From positions 251,004-315,003 of the forward strand of contig JBBTSC010000001.1 in NCBI GenBank assembly GCA_038064875.1: a stretch of DNA of 64,000 bases, read 5' to 3'. Within the stretch, counting starts at the first letter, position 1. Each line of letters starts with the position of its first letter. A program made the translations under genes and the position numbers. Below, piece after piece: positions 10,258 through 15,324 of this stretch. The notes beneath the pieces were generated by a model. The model was given only the letters and a program-made list of their open reading frames with translations, made no database searches and was not told the origin of the DNA. This DNA comes from Patescibacteria group bacterium. GTDB lineage: Bacteria; Patescibacteriota; Saccharimonadia; Saccharimonadales; 2-12-FULL-41-12.

Positions 10258-11487
10258 TTAGCCTGCAAGCTCTACTATTTCGTCAAAAGTCTTGTATTCT
10301 TCGTTTTTTGTAGTCAGATCTCTAACCTTGTACGAATCCTCTGCTAGTTCTTTGTCACCAACAAAGACAATATTCGCTACATTCTTTTTGTATGCTGATT
10401 TTACCTGTTTGTCTTCTTTTTTGCCCGACAGGTCTACTGCTACATTTAGACCCTTAGCTCTCAATTTCTGAGCCAGATCCTGAACTTTATCCGCAATATC
10501 GCCAACAACTATCAGATAAAGATCTGTTTCTGTCTTTAGATCCTGTATAAGGCCGTTCGTTTCCAGAAAGTTCTGGAAAGTTACATCGCCCATACCAAAA
10601 CCTACTGTAGGCACGGGTTCTACGCCGAATTCACCTACAAGCCCGTCGTAGCGTCCACCACCAAACATCGATCTGTTATTCTCAGGATTTTTATCAAATA
10701 CTTCGAAAACTATGTCTGTATAGTAGTCAAATCCTCTTGCGACAGTCGGGACGAATTTGATGTTTTGTACACCAGCCTTTTTAGCTTTCTCGATCAGCGC
10801 ATCACCCTCAGCTGTTCCTCCGTCATTAGTCAAGAATCCAAATAGTTTTTCTGGCTGATCAACTTGATCTTTAAGCTTAGTCTGAAAATCTTCTTTAGCT
10901 AATTTGTCAATATTGTCGATCAGACGAGTGACCTCAGCTACAGAAGTCTTCACCCCAGATTCATTTATTCTTTTATTAAGAAGTTCTCTGGAATTAACAC
11001 GAATCTCGTACATATCTTTAGTTGCGCCAAAAGATTCCATTAGCTTATTTATGATCAGCATCATTTCAAACTCTGCACCTATGCCTTCAATACCGAAGAT
11101 ATCTGCGTTAAGTTGCCAGAATTCGCGCAGGCGTCCACGCTGTTGTCTCTCGTATCTAAAACAGTTCGGTATGCTGTAGAGACGGAGCGGGTAGCCAAGC
11201 TCCTGACGCCTTTTGGCTACCATCCGACTAACCGTTGGTGTCATTTCTGGACGCATGACGACACGCCTACCACCTCTATCAGTGAAGTTGAATGATTGGT
11301 CGTTGACGATCTCCTCAGAAGTTTTGGCAGTGTAGAGATCAAGTGGCTCTAAAATTGGACCATCATATTCCTCGTAGCCAAAGCTCTCCATAACTTCTCG
11401 CCACTTACCGAACATCCACTTCCTCAGACGCATGTCCTCAGGGTAAAAATCTCGCGTACCTTTGTAGTTCTGTGTTGATAAACTCAT
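10258..11487 (-). CDS. hisS: Histidine--tRNA ligase
   Basis: Class II HisRS motifs: KGTRDFYPED, RPEMTPTVSRM, FRYERQQRGRLREFWQLNADIFG, GGGRYDGL. Its start overlaps the upstream gene by 4 bp. Confidence 0.95.
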   Translation of the reverse strand: MSLSTQNYKGTRDFYPEDMRLRKWMFGKWREVMESFGYEEYDGPILEPLDLYTAKTSEEIVNDQSFNFTDRGGRRVVMRPEMTPTVSRMVAKRRQELGYPLRLYSIPNCFRYERQQRGRLREFWQLNADIFGIEGIGAEFEMMLIINKLMESFGATKDMYEIRVNSRELLNKRINESGVKTSVAEVTRLIDNIDKLAKEDFQTKLKDQVDQPEKLFGFLTNDGGTAEGDALIEKAKKAGVQNIKFVPTVARGFDYYTDIVFEVFDKNPENNRSMFGGGRYDGLVGEFGVEPVPTVGFGMGDVTFQNFLETNGLIQDLKTETDLYLIVVGDIADKVQDLAQKLRAKGLNVAVDLSGKKEDKQVKSAYKKNVANIVFVGDKELAEDSYKVRDLTTKNEEYKTFDEIVELAG

Positions 11488-12215
11488 ATTCGCTCCTTAT
11501 TATACATTGATTTTTTTGTTAATAGTCCACCGAAATTATATGGCGTGTATTTATCCGCAATAAATATTGGATATGCTGGGCTTTTAACCCCCAATTCATC
11601 AGCAATCTCTCTGCTAATGGGCTGGAACGCTCTTAAGCCCTTTTCTTTAAGATTGAGTCTTTTACTGTCACCTAAAGATATGCGATAGACAAATTCGTAC
11701 AGACTTATTTGGTTTTCGTCTGCGCTACTAATTTTTTTTGCCTGTGCCAACTCAGTAATTTTATCAACCCACAAATCAACATTCATCATCGCGCTATCCA
11801 GGCTTACCTCCACAGAAATACAGTTTGGCGCATATTTATTTAAGCAATCATAATCAGCTACTATAACCCTATTCAGCCCAAAGAAAGCCGATACATTCTT
11901 TAAATTTTGGTTAGAGGTATCCCCTATAAAAGTGCAGTCATTTTCTGGGCAATGAGTGTTATGAAAATCAATAACAATATCATACTCACTGCAAAGTTTT
12001 ATTATTTGATTAGCTCTATTAAGCTCATAGTCTTTTGATCTTGCATCGCCCGGAAAACTTCTATTGAGATCCTTCCTGATGAACCGCCTTTTTGCTTCTA
12101 CGGCACGCTCATTCGCAATTATACTATCAACTAAACTATTTTTTTCGAGAGCCTTGACTATATCAATACCAAGAGGTTCATTGCCATGCATGCCACCAAT
12201 TACTAGAATTTTCAC
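11484..12215 (-). CDS. Succinylglutamate desuccinylase/aspartoacylase (AstE/AspA) family zinc hydrolase
   Basis: N-terminal VIGGMHGNEPLG, DLNRSFPG and DFHNTHCP resemble the aspartoacylase-family zinc and substrate motifs. It has 4-bp overlaps with both neighbours. Confidence 0.72.
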   Translation of the reverse strand: MKILVIGGMHGNEPLGIDIVKALEKNSLVDSIIANERAVEAKRRFIRKDLNRSFPGDARSKDYELNRANQIIKLCSEYDIVIDFHNTHCPENDCTFIGDTSNQNLKNVSAFFGLNRVIVADYDCLNKYAPNCISVEVSLDSAMMNVDLWVDKITELAQAKKISSADENQISLYEFVYRISLGDSKRLNLKEKGLRAFQPISREIADELGVKSPAYPIFIADKYTPYNFGGLLTKKSMYNKERI

Positions 12216-12877
12216 GACTGTCTCCCCTCTGTAATGATAACAAAATCTCGTCTATCTGGAAGGTCTTTTTCTCTATTAAATATACTAGCATTTGACCCAA
12301 ATCGTTCTGCAACAGACAGCATCTGTGGATTAATTGTCCGATAAGCAAGTCGCGGTACATCAAGCTCCTTCATAAAAGCTCTAGTCATCGCCACAAAGTT
12401 ATCTAGATTCCTGTCTGGCCTTATACGTTTATTTGCAAAGACCTCATCAAGCCATACAACTTCTTTATCAAACGGTAACTGATTTATCAACCAGGCCCTT
12501 ACGGCTGAACTATCACCATACTTTTCATCGATAATTTGTTCAGCGTTTGCACGCCAAGCTAGTCCTGCTAGGGCAACCTTTTCCTCACAAAATTCCAGGT
12601 ACCACCTAGAGGGTCGTGACTCGCCAATCTCGTTAAATCTATCTATTAGATCCGACCCTAAGTAGGCTGGCTCTTTGATGCACAGTTGACATTTTGCACA
12701 GAAATCACCGACCTCTTGATCAGAGAATCCTCCTTCGCATTTTTCCTCATCATCTACACATTTTGAAACTTCATACCAAGGAGGGCCTGCAAAGGCTGTT
12801 TGGTATGCGTTCGCTATTTCATCGTAGTATTTTCTAATTTCTCCTGGGTTTTCCCCAGGATTTATTATCTTATTCAT
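12212..12877 (-). CDS. Hypothetical protein with a Cys-rich, zinc-ribbon-like insert
   Basis: 221-aa ORF with AAAGGAC upstream of the ATG and a cysteine cluster CVDDEEKCEGGFSDQEVGDFCAKCQLC. I recognise no confident family. Its stop overlaps the AstE-like start. Confidence 0.6.
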   Translation of the reverse strand: MNKIINPGENPGEIRKYYDEIANAYQTAFAGPPWYEVSKCVDDEEKCEGGFSDQEVGDFCAKCQLCIKEPAYLGSDLIDRFNEIGESRPSRWYLEFCEEKVALAGLAWRANAEQIIDEKYGDSSAVRAWLINQLPFDKEVVWLDEVFANKRIRPDRNLDNFVAMTRAFMKELDVPRLAYRTINPQMLSVAERFGSNASIFNREKDLPDRRDFVIITEGRQS

Positions 12878-12915
12878 TTCTTTTGTCCTTTAAAATTAAA
12901 TTTTTGAAATTAAAA

Positions 12916-12937
12916 ACGCCGGAACAAAATCCGGCGT
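12916..12937 (-). terminator. Rho-independent terminator (8-bp GC-rich stem plus T-run)
   Basis: Minus strand reads ACGCCGGA-TTTTGT-TCCGGCGT followed by TTTTTAATTT. It lies between the 92-aa ORF and the 221-aa gene. Confidence 0.7.
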
Positions 12938-12962
12938 ATGTATTTTTCAAACAAAAGAATAT

Positions 12963-13019
12963 TTAACCGGCTTGCTCCAGCGATGTATGTGATTGGTGGT
13001 TGTTACAGTAAATATTCAT
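12963..13019 (-). other. Candidate 18-codon leader mini-ORF (MNIYCNNHQSHTSLEQAG)
   Basis: ATG 13019-13017 lies 9 nt downstream of TATAAT (13034-13029, preceded by TGT). The stop TAA at 12965-12963 lies 25 nt before the terminator stem. Two His codons are present. Confidence 0.25.
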
Positions 13020-13040
13020 AACTTGCATATTATAACATAT

Positions 13041-13319
13041 TTATTTATTAACGCGAAGTGCGTCAACACCAGCTCTATGTATGGCTAGGGAGTCAGGAGA
13101 TTCTGGAGCAATGCTTTGCGCTGATGCGCAACTTCCAATACTTCTTAGTCTTTCATTTAATTTACCAAATAACTTTGAAGCGCCTGAAAATATTGACTCG
13201 TGCATTTCTGCTGCTACCATTAGTGGATCTGATGGTATTAGTTTTACGGGAGGTAAATCATCTTGATTATTACCTGTTAGTTCAGGACTTGTTTCAATGG
13301 ATCTTGTGTTTGCGCTCAT
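13041..13319 (-). CDS. Hypothetical small protein (92 aa)
   Basis: An AAGGAAG Shine-Dalgarno sequence lies 4 nt upstream of ATG 13319. The ORF sits 18 nt downstream of the KARI stop and is followed by the terminator at 12916-12937. No recognisable motif. Confidence 0.5.
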   Translation of the reverse strand: MSANTRSIETSPELTGNNQDDLPPVKLIPSDPLMVAAEMHESIFSGASKLFGKLNERLRSIGSCASAQSIAPESPDSLAIHRAGVDALRVNK

Positions 13320-13337
13320 GATACTTCCTTTTTTAAA

Positions 13338-14828
13338 TTATAGTGCTATCGCTACCGGGGGTCGCATCTTTGCTAGTTCACTGAGCACACCATGAACAGG
13401 ATGATTCTCAAAATCATCAAATGCTCCATTATCAGCTCCATCTATATTCGGTAGAACAGCCTGAGCCATAACTGCCTCATATTGTGGTGCCCACTTGCGA
13501 GAACCTCTTCTAGCGGTTACAGAACAATTATCAACCATATGGGCTACACCAGCTTTCTTCATATATGGATTGAGCGAGTCAACAGCTTCGATGATTGATT
13601 CGTTGACAATCTCTGACATGTGATGGCCCTTGCTCATTAACACATCGACTTGTGCCATCATGGCTGCAGCATAAACCCCTGCTACTTTTGTATCAATTTC
13701 AACTTCAGCTACGGTTAATGGATTCATCCTAACTTCGGCTCCTACTTGCCACATCGGGGTGCCTCCAATTTCAAACATCGGGTAATCACGCTCATTGTCT
13801 GCTATAACTTCCGCGATTTCTCGACCACTTGATACATCTGCATATATTTTTTCCGTAAGTTCACGTAACGGACCATAGGCAGACCTGTATGCTTGTCTGA
13901 AAACTGGTTTTTCATCTTCTGGTATGGAATCGTAGAGACCCTTTAAGCCCTTCTCGGAAATCGTTGAAGAGATCGGGCCGACTAATGATTCAACAACGTG
14001 CAAATAGGCCGGTACATCTCTCATAGCTCCAGAGACAGTTAAGTCTTTATACATAGCCTCAACTATTCCGTGGACACCGCCGAGCAAAACAGCTCTTTCG
14101 CCAAATATGTCAGATCTCCATTCGTTTTCTAGAGTTGTCTGGAAAGTGTATGGTGCACCTAACATTCGGGACCATCCAAGAGCTAGATCAGTCTCTCTCT
14201 GCCCACCTTGGCTAACAGCAAAACTGGTATTTATACCGCTATCTTGCTCATAAAGTTTCCTAACAGAAGGGCCCATACCTTTAGGGCACACTCCTATGAT
14301 ACCTACGTCCGGACGGGGAGCCTCTCCCATATTTTCTAGATGCCCTAGCCAGAACCCGTGAGACAGACCGATTACAGAGCCAGATTTTGCAAGACCCACA
14401 AATTCTTGCCCGTGTTTTGCCATCGCGGCATCAGATATCAACATCAGCGAAAGATCCGCATCATCAATCGCTCCTTCTACCGTATCAAGTGTGCCATTTT
14501 TGACATTAAAGCCTGCTTCCTCTGCGCCAGCACGTGATTTACTTCCATCACGCAGACCTACTACTACTTGAGTTTTATCACCAAGTCCAGCTGAATAAAG
14601 AGAGTCCCGAATATTTTGTGCCTGTGCTGGTCCTTGCGAACTCCAGCCTAGTACTGCAATTTTTGCGACTCCGCTTAGAGCTTGTGGCAAACCATCATGC
14701 AAACGGTCACCCTCTTCATTGTAGCCACGCATAACAGTCTCACTTGCACCACCAAGCTCTACCGTCAGTAGGGAGTTAGCAAATATTTCTGACTCAAAAT
14801 TGTTAGACTGGTTCGATTGTGCACTCAT
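13338..14828 (-). CDS. ilvC: Ketol-acid reductoisomerase, long class II, plant-like type
   Basis: Collinear resemblance to plant KARI as I recall it: GWSSQGPAQAQNIRDS, GLSHGFWLGHL, CPKGMGPSVRKLY, SDIFGERAVLLGGVHG, NESIIEAVDSLNPYM, MVDNCSVTARRGSRKWAP. ATG 14828 is preferred because the TTG at 14894 used by the ORF track coincides with a predicted -35 box. Confidence 0.9.
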   Translation of the reverse strand: MSAQSNQSNNFESEIFANSLLTVELGGASETVMRGYNEEGDRLHDGLPQALSGVAKIAVLGWSSQGPAQAQNIRDSLYSAGLGDKTQVVVGLRDGSKSRAGAEEAGFNVKNGTLDTVEGAIDDADLSLMLISDAAMAKHGQEFVGLAKSGSVIGLSHGFWLGHLENMGEAPRPDVGIIGVCPKGMGPSVRKLYEQDSGINTSFAVSQGGQRETDLALGWSRMLGAPYTFQTTLENEWRSDIFGERAVLLGGVHGIVEAMYKDLTVSGAMRDVPAYLHVVESLVGPISSTISEKGLKGLYDSIPEDEKPVFRQAYRSAYGPLRELTEKIYADVSSGREIAEVIADNERDYPMFEIGGTPMWQVGAEVRMNPLTVAEVEIDTKVAGVYAAAMMAQVDVLMSKGHHMSEIVNESIIEAVDSLNPYMKKAGVAHMVDNCSVTARRGSRKWAPQYEAVMAQAVLPNIDGADNGAFDDFENHPVHGVLSELAKMRPPVAIAL

Positions 14829-14865
14829 AGCTAGTAACTCCACATGTTGGTTAAGTATTTTCGGT

Positions 14866-14894
14866 ATTGTATTACCAATATTTTGGGATTGCAA
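14866..14894 (-). promoter_or_regulatory. Candidate promoter for ilvC (TTGCAA-N17-TACAAT)
   Basis: On the minus strand, TTGCAA is at 14894-14889 and TACAAT at 14871-14866, with 17 nt between. It sits directly downstream of the terminator at 14903-14925. Confidence 0.5.
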
Positions 14895-14902
14895 GCATAA
14901 GC

Positions 14903-14925
14903 AAAAAAACGACCATAGAGGTCGC
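14903..14925 (-). terminator. Rho-independent terminator
   Basis: Minus strand reads GCGACC-TCTAT-GGTCGT followed by a run of T (A run 14903-14909 on the plus strand). It lies 10 nt downstream of the CCA end of the tRNA-like fragment. Confidence 0.65.
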
Positions 14926-14935
14926 TAAATAATGT

Positions 14936-15055
14936 TGGTGCGGATGAAAGGACTTGGTCACGTCCCGCGACCCCAGAACTTCACTATTGGCAACGAGTTG
15001 CCATCGGAAGATTCTCTTGCAAAGTGCCGACTGGCACTTCTCACCTTCACGCCTT
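14936..15055 (-). pseudogene. Partial tRNA-Leu 3' copy interrupted at the T-loop by an 87-nt three-hairpin insert
   Basis: Minus-strand block AAGGCGTGAAGGT (15055-15043) and block AAGTCCTTTCATCCGCACCA (14955-14936) are identical to the intact tRNA-Leu. There they are separated by only 2 nt; here by 87 nt (14956-15042). No 5' acceptor strand (GCGGATG) is found. Confidence 0.6.
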
Positions 15056-15089
15056 GGGTTTGGCTCAAATCTGTCTCCCGAACAAACTT

Positions 15090-15110
15090 AAAACCCGACA
15101 CATGGTCGGG
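15090..15110 (-). terminator. Candidate terminator hairpin after tRNA-Leu
   Basis: Minus strand reads CCCGAC-CATGT-GTCGGG followed by TTTT. The hairpin starts 9 nt after the tRNA 3' end. Confidence 0.55.
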
Positions 15111-15119
15111 CTCTAAGTT

Positions 15120-15204
15120 TGGTGCGGATGAAAGGACTTGAACCTTCACGCCTTGCGGCACTAGTTCCTAAGACTAGCGTGTCTACCAATTCCACCACAT
15201 CCGC
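15120..15204 (-). tRNA. tRNA-Leu, anticodon UAG, CCA encoded
   Basis: Folded by hand: acceptor GCGGATG/CATCCGC; 3-bp D stem; anticodon stem CTAGT/ACTAG with loop CT-TAG-GA; long variable arm GCC-GCAA-GGC; T arm GAAGG-TTCAAGT-CCTTT; discriminator A then CCA. Confidence 0.95.
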
Positions 15205-15324
15205 ATGAATAATAAGTGAATTATAGATGTAGATTATATCAAAGTATCAACGAGTAACCAAATTTTGTGCAGGTACGAATATTTCCTGGTATTCCGAAAA
15301 ATCAGCCTTGTCTGGTGAATATAT

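Follow-up and report, generated by a model that had tools for sequence, protein, structure and literature searches.

A family of structured ~87-nt modules in tRNA-derived sequences of Saccharibacteria, possibly small mobile elements

A split copy of the tRNA-Leu(UAG) 3′ part

The window, i.e., the whole stretch of DNA that was analyzed, has a length of 64,000 nt. At the locus under study ARAGORN and Rfam agreed in calling one single tRNA, an intact tRNA-Leu(UAG) with encoded CCA (Table 1). A second, partial copy of this tRNA, comprising its 3′ part, was found downstream of the intact gene on the same (minus) strand, at a distance of 62 nt. BLAST and the repeat finder linked the fragment to the tRNA by two blocks of exact repeats. 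The first has a length of 14 nt (15043–15056 is identical to 15142–15155) and comprises the 3′ side of the variable arm, the 5′ strand of the T-stem, and T54. The second has a length of 22 nt (14935–14956 is identical to 15119–15140) and comprises C56–T60 of the T-loop, the 3′ strands of the T-stem and the acceptor stem, the discriminator A, the CCA (14936–14938), and one more A. In the intact gene, the two blocks are separated by 1 nt (T55), in the fragment by 86 nt (14957–15042). ARAGORN, Rfam, BLAST, and the repeat finder thus confirmed the initial annotation, which had described a partial 3′ copy with a structured insert. The lengths that it gave, 13, 20, 87, and 2 nt, were slightly off and are 14, 22, 86, and 1 nt. 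The fragment was not recognized by ARAGORN or by the Rfam models for tRNA and tmRNA.

Table 1. Features of the tRNA-Leu(UAG) locus
Feature	Position in the window	Strand	Evidence
Intact tRNA-Leu(UAG) gene with encoded CCA	15120–15204	−	ARAGORN; Rfam RF00005, 59.8 bits
T1, terminator-like hairpin after tRNA-Leu	15081–15119	−	Sequence, inverted repeat I1, fold
Spacer between T1 and the tRNA-like fragment	15057–15080	−	Alignment A1; inverted-copy statistics
14-nt block CAAGGCGTGAAGGT, identical to tRNA-Leu; 5′ strand of the closing helix P1	15043–15056	−	BLAST, repeats
Module, 86-nt insert (14957–15042) plus the flanks T54 and C56	14956–15043	−	Covariance model R2, pair map
Module, H1	15021–15040	−	
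Module, GCAAG junction	15016–15020	−	
Module, H2	14975–15015	−	
Module, H3	14956–14972	−	
22-nt block CAAGTCCTTTCATCCGCACCAA, identical to tRNA-Leu	14935–14956	−	BLAST and repeat finder
T2, intrinsic-terminator-like hairpin (7 pairs) and T-run directly after the fragment	14901–14926	−	Terminator scan
Block of variable genes after the unit and before hisS (context, outside the element)	11484–14894	−	ORFs, Pfam

Two terminators had been proposed to flank the element. T2 was found by the terminator scan, with a stem at 14908–14926. T1 is terminator-like in its sequence and as the inverted repeat I1, yet it was not called by the scan, which applies a strict T-run rule. Its core stem pairs 15094–15099 with 15105–15110, the extended stem reaches the ACCAA of the tRNA, and TTTTAAGTTTGTT follows. 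A hairpin with a T-run is present at the equivalent position in the loci L005, L006, L007, L010, and L012. The spacer between T1 and the fragment holds AGATTTGAG (15064–15072), a remnant of an inverted T-arm copy that has the consensus AGATTTGAACCTTCAC in relatives; in the window, the 3′ half of this copy is replaced by a variable-arm-like sequence. A candidate promoter between T1 and the unit was rejected upon inspection, as its TTGAAC motif is the inverted T-arm copy and lacks a consistent −10 spacing.

The gene block downstream of the unit encodes a KARI-like protein of 518 aa, an AstE/AspA-like protein of 243 aa, and two proteins of 92 aa and 221 aa without a Pfam family. In L005 and L010, the interval from the unit to hisS is instead occupied by one unrelated ORF. 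The contigs encoding the RsmD and 164-aa ORFs of the window all end within the tRNA or just past it, and contigs encoding the KARI-like ORF are not on record, probably owing to a different start-codon call. In agreement with the initial annotation, no integrase was found in the window: none is among the 10 unassigned ORFs analyzed with Pfam, and the other ORFs are housekeeping-like by their N-termini.

The insert belongs to a large family of structured modules

The 86-nt insert is one intact copy of a large family of structured modules of about 87 nt in Saccharibacteria (Saccharimonadales). The family has apparently not been described before, and a full-text literature search retrieved no description of the module. 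Its hallmarks are the fixed ends 5′-TGAGAA and GTGAY-3′, the three hairpins H1, H2, and H3, conserved junction strands, and an invariant GCAAG. A covariance model, R2, was built from 110 distinct members; R1 is another model of the family. The window copy matched R2 with 96.4 bits (E = 2e-20) over model positions 1–87 of 87. It begins with TGAGAA, ends with GTGAC, contains the GCAAG, and is embedded in tRNA sequence in the orientation of the tRNA. The three consecutive hairpins are present as had been proposed by eye, and all 29 consensus pairs of the family model form, the last pair of H3 using C56. Within the 64-kb window, the match at 14956–15043 was the only one to R2, and BLAST also revealed no further copies. 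The fold of the 186-nt element has a predicted free energy of −69.8 kcal/mol (z = −3.83), and none of 200 shuffled sequences folded as well; the z value for the insert alone is −2.38. This architecture was found again in more than 100 independent loci, which puts the element far beyond chance.

The order of whole tRNA, T1, module, CCA, and T2 was common to 5 of the 8 matches in GTDB genomes. A pattern scan of metagenomes yielded at least 120 matches with lengths clustering at 93–99 nt, and the module-only model R2 found 169 copies at E ≤ 0.01 in the fetched genome and metagenome loci of Saccharimonadales. No R2 match was obtained in 20 control viral loci, the H1-plus-junction pattern retrieved nothing from viral contigs, and a BLAST search of the unit against the INPHARED phages was also negative. 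Two further patterns were applied to viral contigs. The one with a degenerate right flank gave matches by chance only, and the pattern GGGSYCGCNNNNNGTGRSCAAGTCC was dropped, as all of its 15 matches were protein-coding, about six of them being Walker A codons of P-loop proteins (GPPGVGKS). Rfam 15 at the gathering threshold retrieved only tRNA from the whole window, and at E ≤ 10 the region 14850–15260 gave again the tRNA and no match to an intron or a ribozyme. The same was true at the gathering score for 15 module-bearing loci, which yielded tRNA only.

The structure is supported by covariation across homologous loci, one of the checks that had been proposed. Among the 110 distinct sequences, 97.4% of the cells are paired, compared to 75.9% after shuffling and 25–45% with slid partners, and the number of double-change cells is 612, compared to 127 in shuffles. 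Compensatory changes were found in 25 of the 29 pairs. The covariation score is 0.579 versus 0.163, and none of 500 shuffles reached 0.579. Pairing and covariation of P1 were likewise observed across tRNA species. In H1, H2, and P1, G-U exceeds A-C about 4:1, and therefore the fold is on the tRNA-sense strand. The search patterns demanded GGTGARR, GGGnnCGC, GTG, and CAAGTCC, so that the conservation at these positions, as well as the dominance of the T-loop as a site, is partly due to the way in which the copies were found; the GCAAG was not imposed by the patterns. A GNRA mini-hairpin around the GCAAG was considered and discarded, since the bases on either side of it covary within H1 and H2.

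Not all copies are intact. Several loci contain diverged or decaying copies, up to three in one locus (e.g., L006, L063, L066, and L083). Mosaic copies also exist: the window module and L059/L133 are alike in H1 and H3 and unlike in H2.

Insertion sites of the modules

All module copies that were observed sit at tRNA loci. They always lie within tRNA-derived sequence, have the orientation of the tRNA, and replace two nucleotides, with a G as the left neighbor and a C (rarely an A) as the right neighbor. Of 148 copies, 138 have AGG or GGG as their left flank, and the module ends are constant to the single nucleotide amid unrelated host sequences. The main site is the T-loop, and the hosts represent about 20 tRNA isoacceptors for 11 amino acids, namely copies of tRNAs for Leu (5 anticodons), Lys, Ile, His, Pro, Trp, Gln, Ala, Val, Met, and Arg. 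Further sites are T-loops of the CGAAT type, the D-loop, and position 25/26. Two modules within one tRNA copy were found in L050 and L066. That the insert is one of many, present in many tRNA species and at several positions of the tRNA sequence, goes beyond the initial annotation.

An intact copy of the same tRNA nearly always adjoins the module-bearing copy, and two arrangements were found. In the upstream arrangement, tRNA positions 1–54, the module, and a short stub precede the intact tRNA by 36–42 nt. In the downstream arrangement, the T-stem 5′ strand, the module, and positions 56–76 with CCA follow the terminator of the tRNA, mostly at 70–90 nt from the intact gene. The window copy has the downstream arrangement and lies less than 100 nt from the intact tRNA. 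An inverted T-arm copy, scored at 11 or more of 14 positions, accompanies 43 of 117 units (about 37%), compared to 1 of 117 shuffled controls. It fits the T-stem of its own unit better than those of other units, with means of 9.68 versus 8.54 of 14 positions; the copy in the window scores only 8 of 14.

Nesting was seen once. In L076, a module lies inside another module, and after the inner module was removed and the GT restored in silico, the outer one gave its best match, with 34 bits (E = 1.4e-10), over model positions 19–87, its 5′ end being missing. Furthermore, an occupied and an empty allele of one tRNA-Leu gene were found. L139, with the module, and L010, without it, have identical tRNA-Leu exons and the same start of the 3′ flank, and they stem from different species-level genomes. 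Between close strains, no occupied/empty polymorphism was seen.

A small mobile element is the favored explanation

The explanation that we favor, at slightly less than even confidence, is that the module is a mobile element, small, non-autonomous, and site-specific, whose survival is restricted to redundant tRNA copies. The covarying family, the constant ends in unrelated hosts, the nesting, the alleles of L139 and L010, and the decaying and mosaic copies all argue for mobility. The preferred target would be the T-loop, with the sequence GG|TT|CAAG or GG|TT|CGAA, and lesser targets would be the D-loop, position 25/26, and the T-loop-like 5′ strand of H3 of the module itself. A putative enzyme encoded elsewhere in the genome would probably recognize the folded single-stranded form; the fold is on the tRNA-sense strand, and both RNA and DNA could serve. 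Insertion into the sole working tRNA gene would be lethal, and therefore copies would persist only in full or partial duplicates beside a working gene. We infer that the modules are still mobile; the single-stranded intermediate and the mobilizing enzyme are putative, and any account of how the partial tRNA duplications arise would likewise be conjectural.

Several observations do not sit easily with mobility. The tight conservation of the junction nucleotides and of the structure is more typical of a functional RNA, the 64-kb window holds a single copy, and all copies are at tRNA loci. The regular spacing to the intact tRNA and the inverted T-arm copy look designed, so that insertion alone does not explain them. 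The module has neither terminal inverted repeats nor a target-site duplication and, therefore, fits no known transposition chemistry. No mobilizing enzyme is linked to it: the clustered ORFs of at least 120 aa in the module loci belong to housekeeping families only, those recurring near modules being RsmD, HisS, RecG, and trigger factor.

Alternative explanations

A rather unlikely alternative is that the module is a functional RNA domain of a leader or trailer transcript shared with the neighboring tRNA. It would form a four-way junction closed by a T-stem mimic, with a tRNA-like 3′ strand ending in CCA, and would bind a protein or an RNA, for instance a factor for tRNA processing, modification, or aminoacylation, or the cognate tRNA via the inverted T-arm copy; alternatively, it might be processed to a stable small RNA or a mimic of a 3′ tRNA fragment. 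The very strong covariation, the invariant GCAAG junction outside the search pattern, the G-U bias of the sense strand, and the constant co-orientation with the tRNA at fixed distances are in agreement with such a role, and terminator-like hairpins bound the unit both in relatives and in the window. U-N-N-R-A, the consensus of T-loop motifs, would accommodate the invariant 5′ UGAGA. Moreover, the unit of L010 retains CATCCGCAACA despite the different acceptor stem of the adjacent tRNA, and therefore the tail is not maintained by gene conversion only. However, the downstream form sits behind a terminator-like hairpin, and inspection revealed no convincing promoter between T1 and the unit. A working RNA gene would not be expected to have nested, truncated, and decaying copies, or as many as three copies per locus. 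The module occurs in the T-loop, in the D-loop, and at position 25/26 of the tRNA frame, and therefore no constant overall RNA architecture exists. A relative is not found in Rfam. The proposal that the element is an unrecognized tRNA-like structured RNA ending in CCA was thus borne out with regard to the structure, which covaries and is absent from Rfam, while its role as an RNA is a candidate one.

We regard it as improbable that the whole unit, made up of the T-stem 5′ strand, the module, and C56 through CCA, serves as a structured site of recombination or attachment, at which small gene cassettes would be inserted and exchanged beside tRNA genes. By analogy, such a site would resemble an integron attC or the folded single-stranded attP of CTXphi, and, by folding back on the sequences on either side of the module, the inverted T-arm copy would mimic a double-stranded T-arm target. 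The gene contents of several loci would fit. In L047, two units that differ by 1 nt flank a block of 1.8 kb with an aminoglycoside-phosphotransferase-like ORF, assigned by reading of the sequence, and a P-loop kinase-like ORF, and a tRNA 3′ remnant and T1 precede the second unit. A glyoxalase gene lies between two units in L012. A cassette end TAGTTGCAATAGCGTCTACG(A/G)TGGCCCTCCA is shared by L047, L061, and L063 and is diverged in L116. The genes right after the unit differ among the window, L005, L010, and L006; all four retain RsmD upstream, and the window, L005, and L010 also retain hisS/tig downstream. The frequency of inverted T-arm copies, far above that in shuffled controls, and their better fit to their own T-stems would also be in accord with this function. 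However, the units have no linked recombinase gene, recombinase families are not enriched near modules, and the integrases documented at tRNA-Leu(UAG) cross over in the anticodon loop. Repeats around cargo could equally be the product of ordinary homologous recombination among dispersed copies. In the window, the cargo is not followed by a second unit and a good inverted copy is absent, and the modules in D-loops, at position 25/26, and inside other modules are left unexplained.

It is very improbable that the module is a tRNA intron at a non-canonical position, self-spliced or spliced by an enzyme, and thus a bacterial counterpart of the archaeal introns in T- and D-loops. The placement in tRNA loops, sometimes twice per gene, is intron-like, L139 resembles an otherwise intact tRNA-Leu gene carrying a module, and Patescibacteria are rich in tRNA introns (PMC13011429). 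However, once the module is removed, the T-loop lacks one or two nucleotides, namely T55 or both T54 and T55. Most host copies lack half of the tRNA, and only about 9 of 128 gave a tRNA call by ARAGORN after removal of the module; in the window fragment, the 5′ half is absent, and the so-called exons cannot rejoin to a complete tRNA. In nearly all cases, an uninterrupted copy of the tRNA in question lies next to the module-bearing one, and the Rfam models of group I introns, group II introns, and ribozymes did not match. A bulge-helix-bulge intron was rejected, as the boundaries lie at the bases of the separate hairpins H1 and H3 and not at 3-nt bulges separated by a 4-bp helix.

An ordinary scar, i.e., a decayed second tRNA-Leu or an integrase att remnant with chance-acquired sequence and without conserved structure or function, is hardly credible. 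In its favor, what precedes the fragment on the 5′ side looks like the decayed 5′ part of a tRNA in some relatives, integration into tRNA-Leu(UAG) is documented for the clade, and L008 has a plain tandem 3′ fragment without insert. The covariation results contradict this reading: more than 100 loci and many tRNA species have the insert in conserved form, with compensatory changes, and its ends are constant to the nucleotide. A decayed second tRNA without a conserved insert, named at the outset as the finding that would speak against the element, was not what the relatives showed, as they keep the insert.

Returning to the favored small mobile element, a bolder version of it appears possible, though we advance it with more reserve. 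The modules would represent a new class of site-specific mobile elements that recognize the tRNA elbow: an RNA-like four-way junction of about 87 nt that would enter T- and D-loops in ultra-small Saccharibacteria and be moved via a folded single-stranded intermediate, by a putative enzyme or its own catalysis, as a bacterial counterpart of the "transposing" archaeal tRNA introns. If the family is what it seems to be, bacterial genomes would gain a novel type of small structured element that is bound to the best-conserved tRNA loops and abundant in a phylum with tiny genomes, in which non-coding DNA is scarce. It would offer a tractable system for the analysis of how short intervening sequences move between tRNA genes, might lead to a new enzyme or ribozyme with T-loop specificity, and would account for assembly breaks at tRNA genes and for stray tRNA fragments in annotations. 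Under the rival readings, too, the modules would be a new RNA family, and with 25 of 29 pairs in 110 distinct sequences its covariation support would place it among the better candidates.

Comparison with known systems

The non-canonical tRNA introns of archaea (Thermoproteales), which have a bulge-helix-bulge, have been reviewed (PMC4090602, PMC4033280). As with the modules, short intervening sequences that are related to one another interrupt many different tRNA genes in D-loops, T-loops, and elsewhere, several can be present per gene, and the pattern implies transposition between tRNA genes. The archaeal introns are cut out by the splicing endonuclease at the bulge-helix-bulge, and the exons restore the full tRNA. 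In contrast, the modules have a bacterial host, two nucleotides are missing, the interrupted copies are mostly truncated pseudogenes beside an intact gene, and no bulge-helix-bulge is present.

With the att remnants of integrases, the module-bearing repeat has in common that the tRNA 3′ end is copied exactly downstream of the gene and that variable genes come next; in the window, this direct repeat has 22 nt including the CCA. The repeat is not contiguous from a crossover, but split at the T-loop by a conserved structure of 86 nt between T54 and C56, and no integrase or island is nearby, only a gap of 62 nt to the tRNA and no integrase among the window ORFs tested. The proposed scar of a tyrosine integrase with a crossover in the T-loop is, therefore, unsupported in its simple form, as the gap is 62 nt and the insert lies exactly at the would-be crossover. 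The integrases documented at tRNA-Leu(UAG) use the anticodon loop, and the integrative elements documented at this gene in relatives carry or leave a contiguous piece from the anticodon loop to CCA without an insert. Phage contigs (L028–L032) contain a tyrosine integrase and such a contiguous piece. In L147, a large serine recombinase gene has a contiguous tRNA fragment beside it, followed by T1 and a module-bearing unit, which we read as belonging to the resident chromosome and not to the recombinase element. In addition, modules occur in the upstream form, with the 5′ part of the tRNA.

Integron attC sites and the attP of CTXphi are similar in that structure is conserved above sequence and the fold is strand-specific. 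The units sometimes flank cassettes that look promoter-less, and the inverted copy could mimic a double-stranded target. However, an attC consists of a single imperfect hairpin that carries R and L boxes (R″/L″-L′/R′) and has intI and attI nearby, whereas the module has three hairpins and a conserved junction, is embedded in a tRNA, and has no integrase nearby.

MITEs, Rickettsia palindromic elements, and palindrome-associated elements derived from IS200/IS605 resemble the modules in being about 90 nt long, non-coding, and hairpin-rich, in having many copies across genomes, sometimes inside RNA genes, and in nesting. They differ from the modules, which have no terminal inverted repeats or target-site duplications, end hairpins unlike each other, and strictly tRNA-derived targets in which two nucleotides are replaced. 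As regards MITEs, TGAGAA and GTGAC are not inverted repeats, and the two target nucleotides are lost and not duplicated. As regards IS200/IS605-type features, H1 and H3 are dissimilar, target bases are lost, and the left flank is consistently RGG.

The group I introns of Patescibacteria tRNA genes (PMC13011429) are ribozymes of at least 200 nt that reside in the anticodon loop and are spliced precisely. They occur in the same phylum, also interrupt tRNA genes, and also cause annotation tools to miss or mis-call the tRNA, but the module has 87 nt, lies in the T-loop or the D-loop, and has no group I core.

A second, interrupted copy of the tRNA-Leu 3′ part

The only tRNA gene of the 64-kb window is followed on the same strand by a second copy of its 3′ part, as the initial annotation had claimed. 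Two blocks that are exact repeats of the tRNA, and that are one base (T55) apart in the intact gene, are separated by a unique insert. The sizes proposed for the blocks (13 and 20 nt), the insert (87 nt), and the normal gap (2 nt) were nearly correct, but have to be replaced by 14, 22, 86, and 1 nt; the corrections are small, and the observation holds. The computed fold agrees with the three hairpins (H1, H2, and H3) drawn by eye, and the 186-nt element folds far better than shuffled sequences (z = -3.83). ARAGORN and Rfam called only tRNA-Leu(UAG), and the element had no Rfam match even at E <= 10. In the following, the insert is termed the module, and the module with its flanking tRNA-derived sequence the unit.

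Features of the tRNA-Leu locus in the window and selected features of the fetched loci (L numbers: genome, metagenome, and viral contigs)
Feature	Position	Strand	Remark
tRNA-Leu(UAG)	15120-15204	minus	ARAGORN and Rfam
T1, long hairpin with T-rich tail	core stem 15094-15099 with 15105-15110	minus	3′ of tRNA-Leu
Spacer, about 24 nt	between T1 and the 14-nt block	minus	
14-nt block CAAGGCGTGAAGGT	15043-15056	minus	exact tRNA-Leu copy
Module start UGAGA	15039-15043	minus	
Insert, 86 nt	14957-15042	minus	unique
22-nt block CAAGTCCTTTCATCCGCACCAA	14935-14956	minus	exact tRNA-Leu copy
T2, terminator-like hairpin with T-run	stem 14908-14926	minus	terminator scan
Parts nearly identical to L059/L133	15021-15043 and 14956-14980		
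KARI-like ORF, 518 aa	13338-14894	minus	both KARI domains present
Two ORFs without Pfam family, AstE/AspA-like ORF	11484-13319		same variable block as KARI-like ORF
Plain tandem tRNA-Leu 3′ end	L008:6787-6947		no module
tRNA-Leu copy with three interruptions	L010:2357-2700		
Insert unrelated to the module, 79 nt	L011:876-970		T54/C56 of tRNA-Leu 3′ fragment
Two units with enclosed block	L047, 4400-6626		
Transposase-like ORF	L116:3-710	opposite to unit	
Integrase and tRNA-Leu copy (example)	L032:1500-2819		
Large serine recombinase	L147, 335-2610	reverse	

The gene order at the locus is RecG, RsmD, a 164-aa ORF, tRNA-Leu, the element, four ORFs, HisS, and trigger factor. Relatives have retained RsmD, tRNA-Leu, the element, hisS, and tig, and the genes between the element and hisS vary. 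In the window these are the four ORFs from the KARI-like to the AstE/AspA-like one; a branched-chain amino-acid enzyme (ketol-acid reductoisomerase-like) would not be expected in a Saccharibacterium. Groundwater metagenomes, including the Hainich aquifer, are the source of contigs with the same or almost the same sequence as the window, and the nearest genome matches are metagenome-assembled Saccharimonadales (Saccharibacteria). Short near-identical contigs stop within or just past the tRNA, at window positions 15125 (L001) and 15061 (L003). These ends, from independent assemblies of the same organism, fit a break of the assembly graph at the 22-nt repeat; such breaks may be common at module loci.

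Family size and host tRNAs

One genome per species was scanned for the two T-arm flanks with any 71-101 nt between them. Five of the eight loci found (L005, L006, L007, L010, and L012) share the complete layout of the window, i.e., tRNA-Leu(UAG), T1, about 40 nt, GTGAAGGT, an insert of similar length, CAAGTCC...CCA, and T2. The insert sequences have strongly diverged and the hairpins are retained; RNAalifold, with six sequences only, predicted 43 pairs with compensatory changes in 25. The L010 unit has CATCCGCAACA despite the different acceptor stem of the neighbouring tRNA, showing that its tail was not simply copied from this neighbour. The plain tandem 3′ end in L008 (GGGTTCAAGTCC...CCA) lies about 60 nt past the gene and could represent the state before insertion or a precise loss.

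Metagenome contigs were searched with a pattern that left T-stem and acceptor free (GGTGARR, a 45-75 nt gap, GGGnnCGCnnnnnGTGnnCAAGTCC), which yielded at least 120 matches with lengths clustering at 93-99 nt. A looser pattern was dropped because its 15 matches in viral contigs all lay in protein-coding sequence, about six at Walker A codons. The 128 matches listed comprise 122 distinct modules of 83-98 nt, one being a chance match. Among the matches listed, nearly all modules adjoin an intact tRNA of the same orientation: they lie either downstream, 50-100 nt (mostly 70-90 nt) from the tRNA 3′ end, or upstream, 36-42 nt from the tRNA 5′ end. The adjoining tRNAs are those for Leu (UAG, CAG, CAA, UAA, GAG), Lys (CUU, UUU), Ile, His, Pro (three anticodons), Trp, Gln, Ala, Val, Met, and Arg.

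For the module alone, a covariance model (R2) was built on 110 distinct sequences. It detected 169 copies in the fetched loci at E <= 0.01, exactly one copy in the window (96.4 bits, 29 of 29 consensus pairs formed), and none in 20 unrelated viral control loci. Rfam returned only tRNAs for 15 module-bearing loci, and no copies were found in IMG/VR and INPHARED. A description of the element was not found in the open-access literature, to which the search was confined, and may exist elsewhere.

Conservation of the structure

In the 110 sequences, standard pairs were present in 97.4% of the cells, compared to 75.9% after shuffling and 25-45% with slid partners. Both sides had changed in 612 cells versus 127 in shuffles, and compensatory changes occurred at 25 of the 29 pairs. 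The covariation score was 0.579 versus 0.163, and none of 500 shuffles scored as high. Four pairs that never vary, as well as GGTGARR, GGG, and CAAGTCC, are imposed by the search pattern; the junction strand GCAAG, more than 90% conserved, is free of this constraint. When the flanks are included, a four-way junction results; it is closed by the T-stem strands, which covary between tRNA species. G-U pairs exceed A-C combinations about 4:1 (30:8 in H1, 23:6 in H2, and 74:18 in P1, the closing T-stem helix); the fold is therefore that of the tRNA-sense strand, as RNA or single-stranded DNA.

The consensus of the T-loop structural motif is U-N-N-R-A. The first five module bases, UGAGA, are invariant across the family and match it; judged from the sequence, the interrupted T-stem may regain a T-loop-like turn from the module.

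H1, the junction, and H3 of the window module are almost identical to those of L059/L133, whereas H2 is entirely different, which suggests domain swapping between module subfamilies. The L133 module has the upstream arrangement, unlike the downstream form of the window.

Insertion positions and arrangements

Both ends of the module are constant, with TGAGAA at the 5′ side and GTGAY at the 3′ side. Of 148 full-length copies, 138 have AGG or GGG at the end of the left flank; the right flank begins with C. CAAGT-type T-loops are not the only sites: modules also lie in CGAAT-type T-loops (L062, L083), in D-loops (L006, L012, L043), and at position 25/26 (L050, L066; in both, the tRNA copy holds a T-loop module as well). 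One module is nested in the H3 5′ strand of another, in T-arm-like sequence at GGG|GT|CGC; when it was deleted and GT restored, the outer remainder, which lacks its 5′ end, gave its best match (34 bits). Two host nucleotides are replaced in every insertion context. In L139, a module interrupts a tRNA-Leu gene; the remainder of this gene is identical to the uninterrupted one in L010, and so are, bar one mismatch, the 15 nt that directly follow in the 3′ flank; by sequence, the two are an occupied and an empty allele.

In the upstream arrangement, tRNA positions 1-54 are followed by the module, C56 to about 62-67, about 10 nt, and CTTGAACC. In the downstream arrangement, that of the window, T1 and a spacer are often followed by TTGAACCTTCAC; then come a short loop, the 5′ strand of the T-stem, the module, and tRNA positions 56-76 including CCA. 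The uninterrupted T-arm has CTTGAACCTTCAC as its reverse complement; this sequence could, from its complementarity, pair with both module flanks. An inverted T-arm copy matching in at least 11 of 14 positions was present in 43 of 117 units, compared to 1 of 117 shuffled controls, and the mean match was 9.68 of 14 positions to the T-stem of the same unit versus 8.54 to those of other units. It is not universal, and the window retains only AGATTTGAG (8 of 14).

The tRNA-Leu copy in L010 is interrupted three times: its D-loop holds a 29-nt hairpin, its T-loop a module, and the 3′ strand of its T-stem about 145 nt. This last stretch contains a complete second tRNA-Leu gene whose acceptor stem differs (GCCGCGG), with the inverted repeats CAAGTACATTG and CAATGTACTTC on either side. 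In L011, the unrelated insert (fold z = -2.69) occupies exactly the T54/C56 site used by the module, and the tRNA terminator is duplicated before and after it; it may represent a second family of T-loop inserts.

Possible nature of the module

The feature set is best, if tentatively, explained by a small, non-autonomous, site-specific mobile element. This reading is based on the constant ends in unrelated host sequence, the several tRNA positions and many tRNA species, the nesting, the occupied and empty alleles, decaying copies in arrays, and mosaic copies (window and L059/L133, with shared H1/H3 and not H2). The folded sense strand would be the substrate for mobilisation, and modules would survive only in redundant tRNA copies. 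However, a mobilising enzyme was not found, inverted repeats and target duplication are lacking, and insertion alone does not account for the regular spacing to the tRNA and the inverted T-arm copy. Furthermore, the structure is conserved at a level typical of working RNAs; that the module is a functional tRNA-linked RNA domain is less likely than a mobile element.

Still less probable is a structured cassette recombination site; both alternatives are compatible with mobility. In L047, two units that differ by 1 nt flank 1.8 kb with an aminoglycoside-phosphotransferase-like ORF (read by eye) and a P-loop kinase-like ORF, and the second unit is preceded by a tRNA 3′ remnant and T1. In L012, a glyoxalase gene lies between two units. 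A cassette end, TAGTTGCAATAGCGTCTACG(A/G)TGGCCCTCCA, is common to L047, L061, and L063 and diverged in L116. No recombinase was linked to the units, the recurrent neighbours being RsmD, HisS, RecG, and trigger factor, and no integrase was detected among ten unassigned window ORFs. A transposase-like gene near a module was seen only in L116, about 600 nt upstream of the unit; it has an N-terminal helix-turn-helix and appears IS30-like by eye.

An intron is excluded by the two nucleotides missing at the insertion, by the truncation of most host copies (a tRNA was called after module removal in only about 9 of 128), and by the nearly always adjoining intact gene. A decayed tRNA or a random scar is ruled out by the covariation of the insert structure across the family; the simple integrase scar considered in the initial annotation is not supported.

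Integrase-bearing elements do occur at this tRNA. In the IMG/VR phage contigs L028-L032, a 314-aa tyrosine integrase adjoins a partial tRNA-Leu(UAG) copy that extends from the anticodon loop to CCA and looks, by sequence, like an attP site; L028 and L031 have, in addition, an entire tRNA-Leu 1.8 kb away on the other strand. In L147, the recombinase (with Resolvase, Recombinase, and zinc-ribbon domains) is encoded immediately upstream of a 3′ fragment of tRNA-Leu that starts at the anticodon loop and is followed by T1 and a unit. These integrative elements at tRNA-Leu(UAG) are devoid of the module and have their crossover in the anticodon loop.
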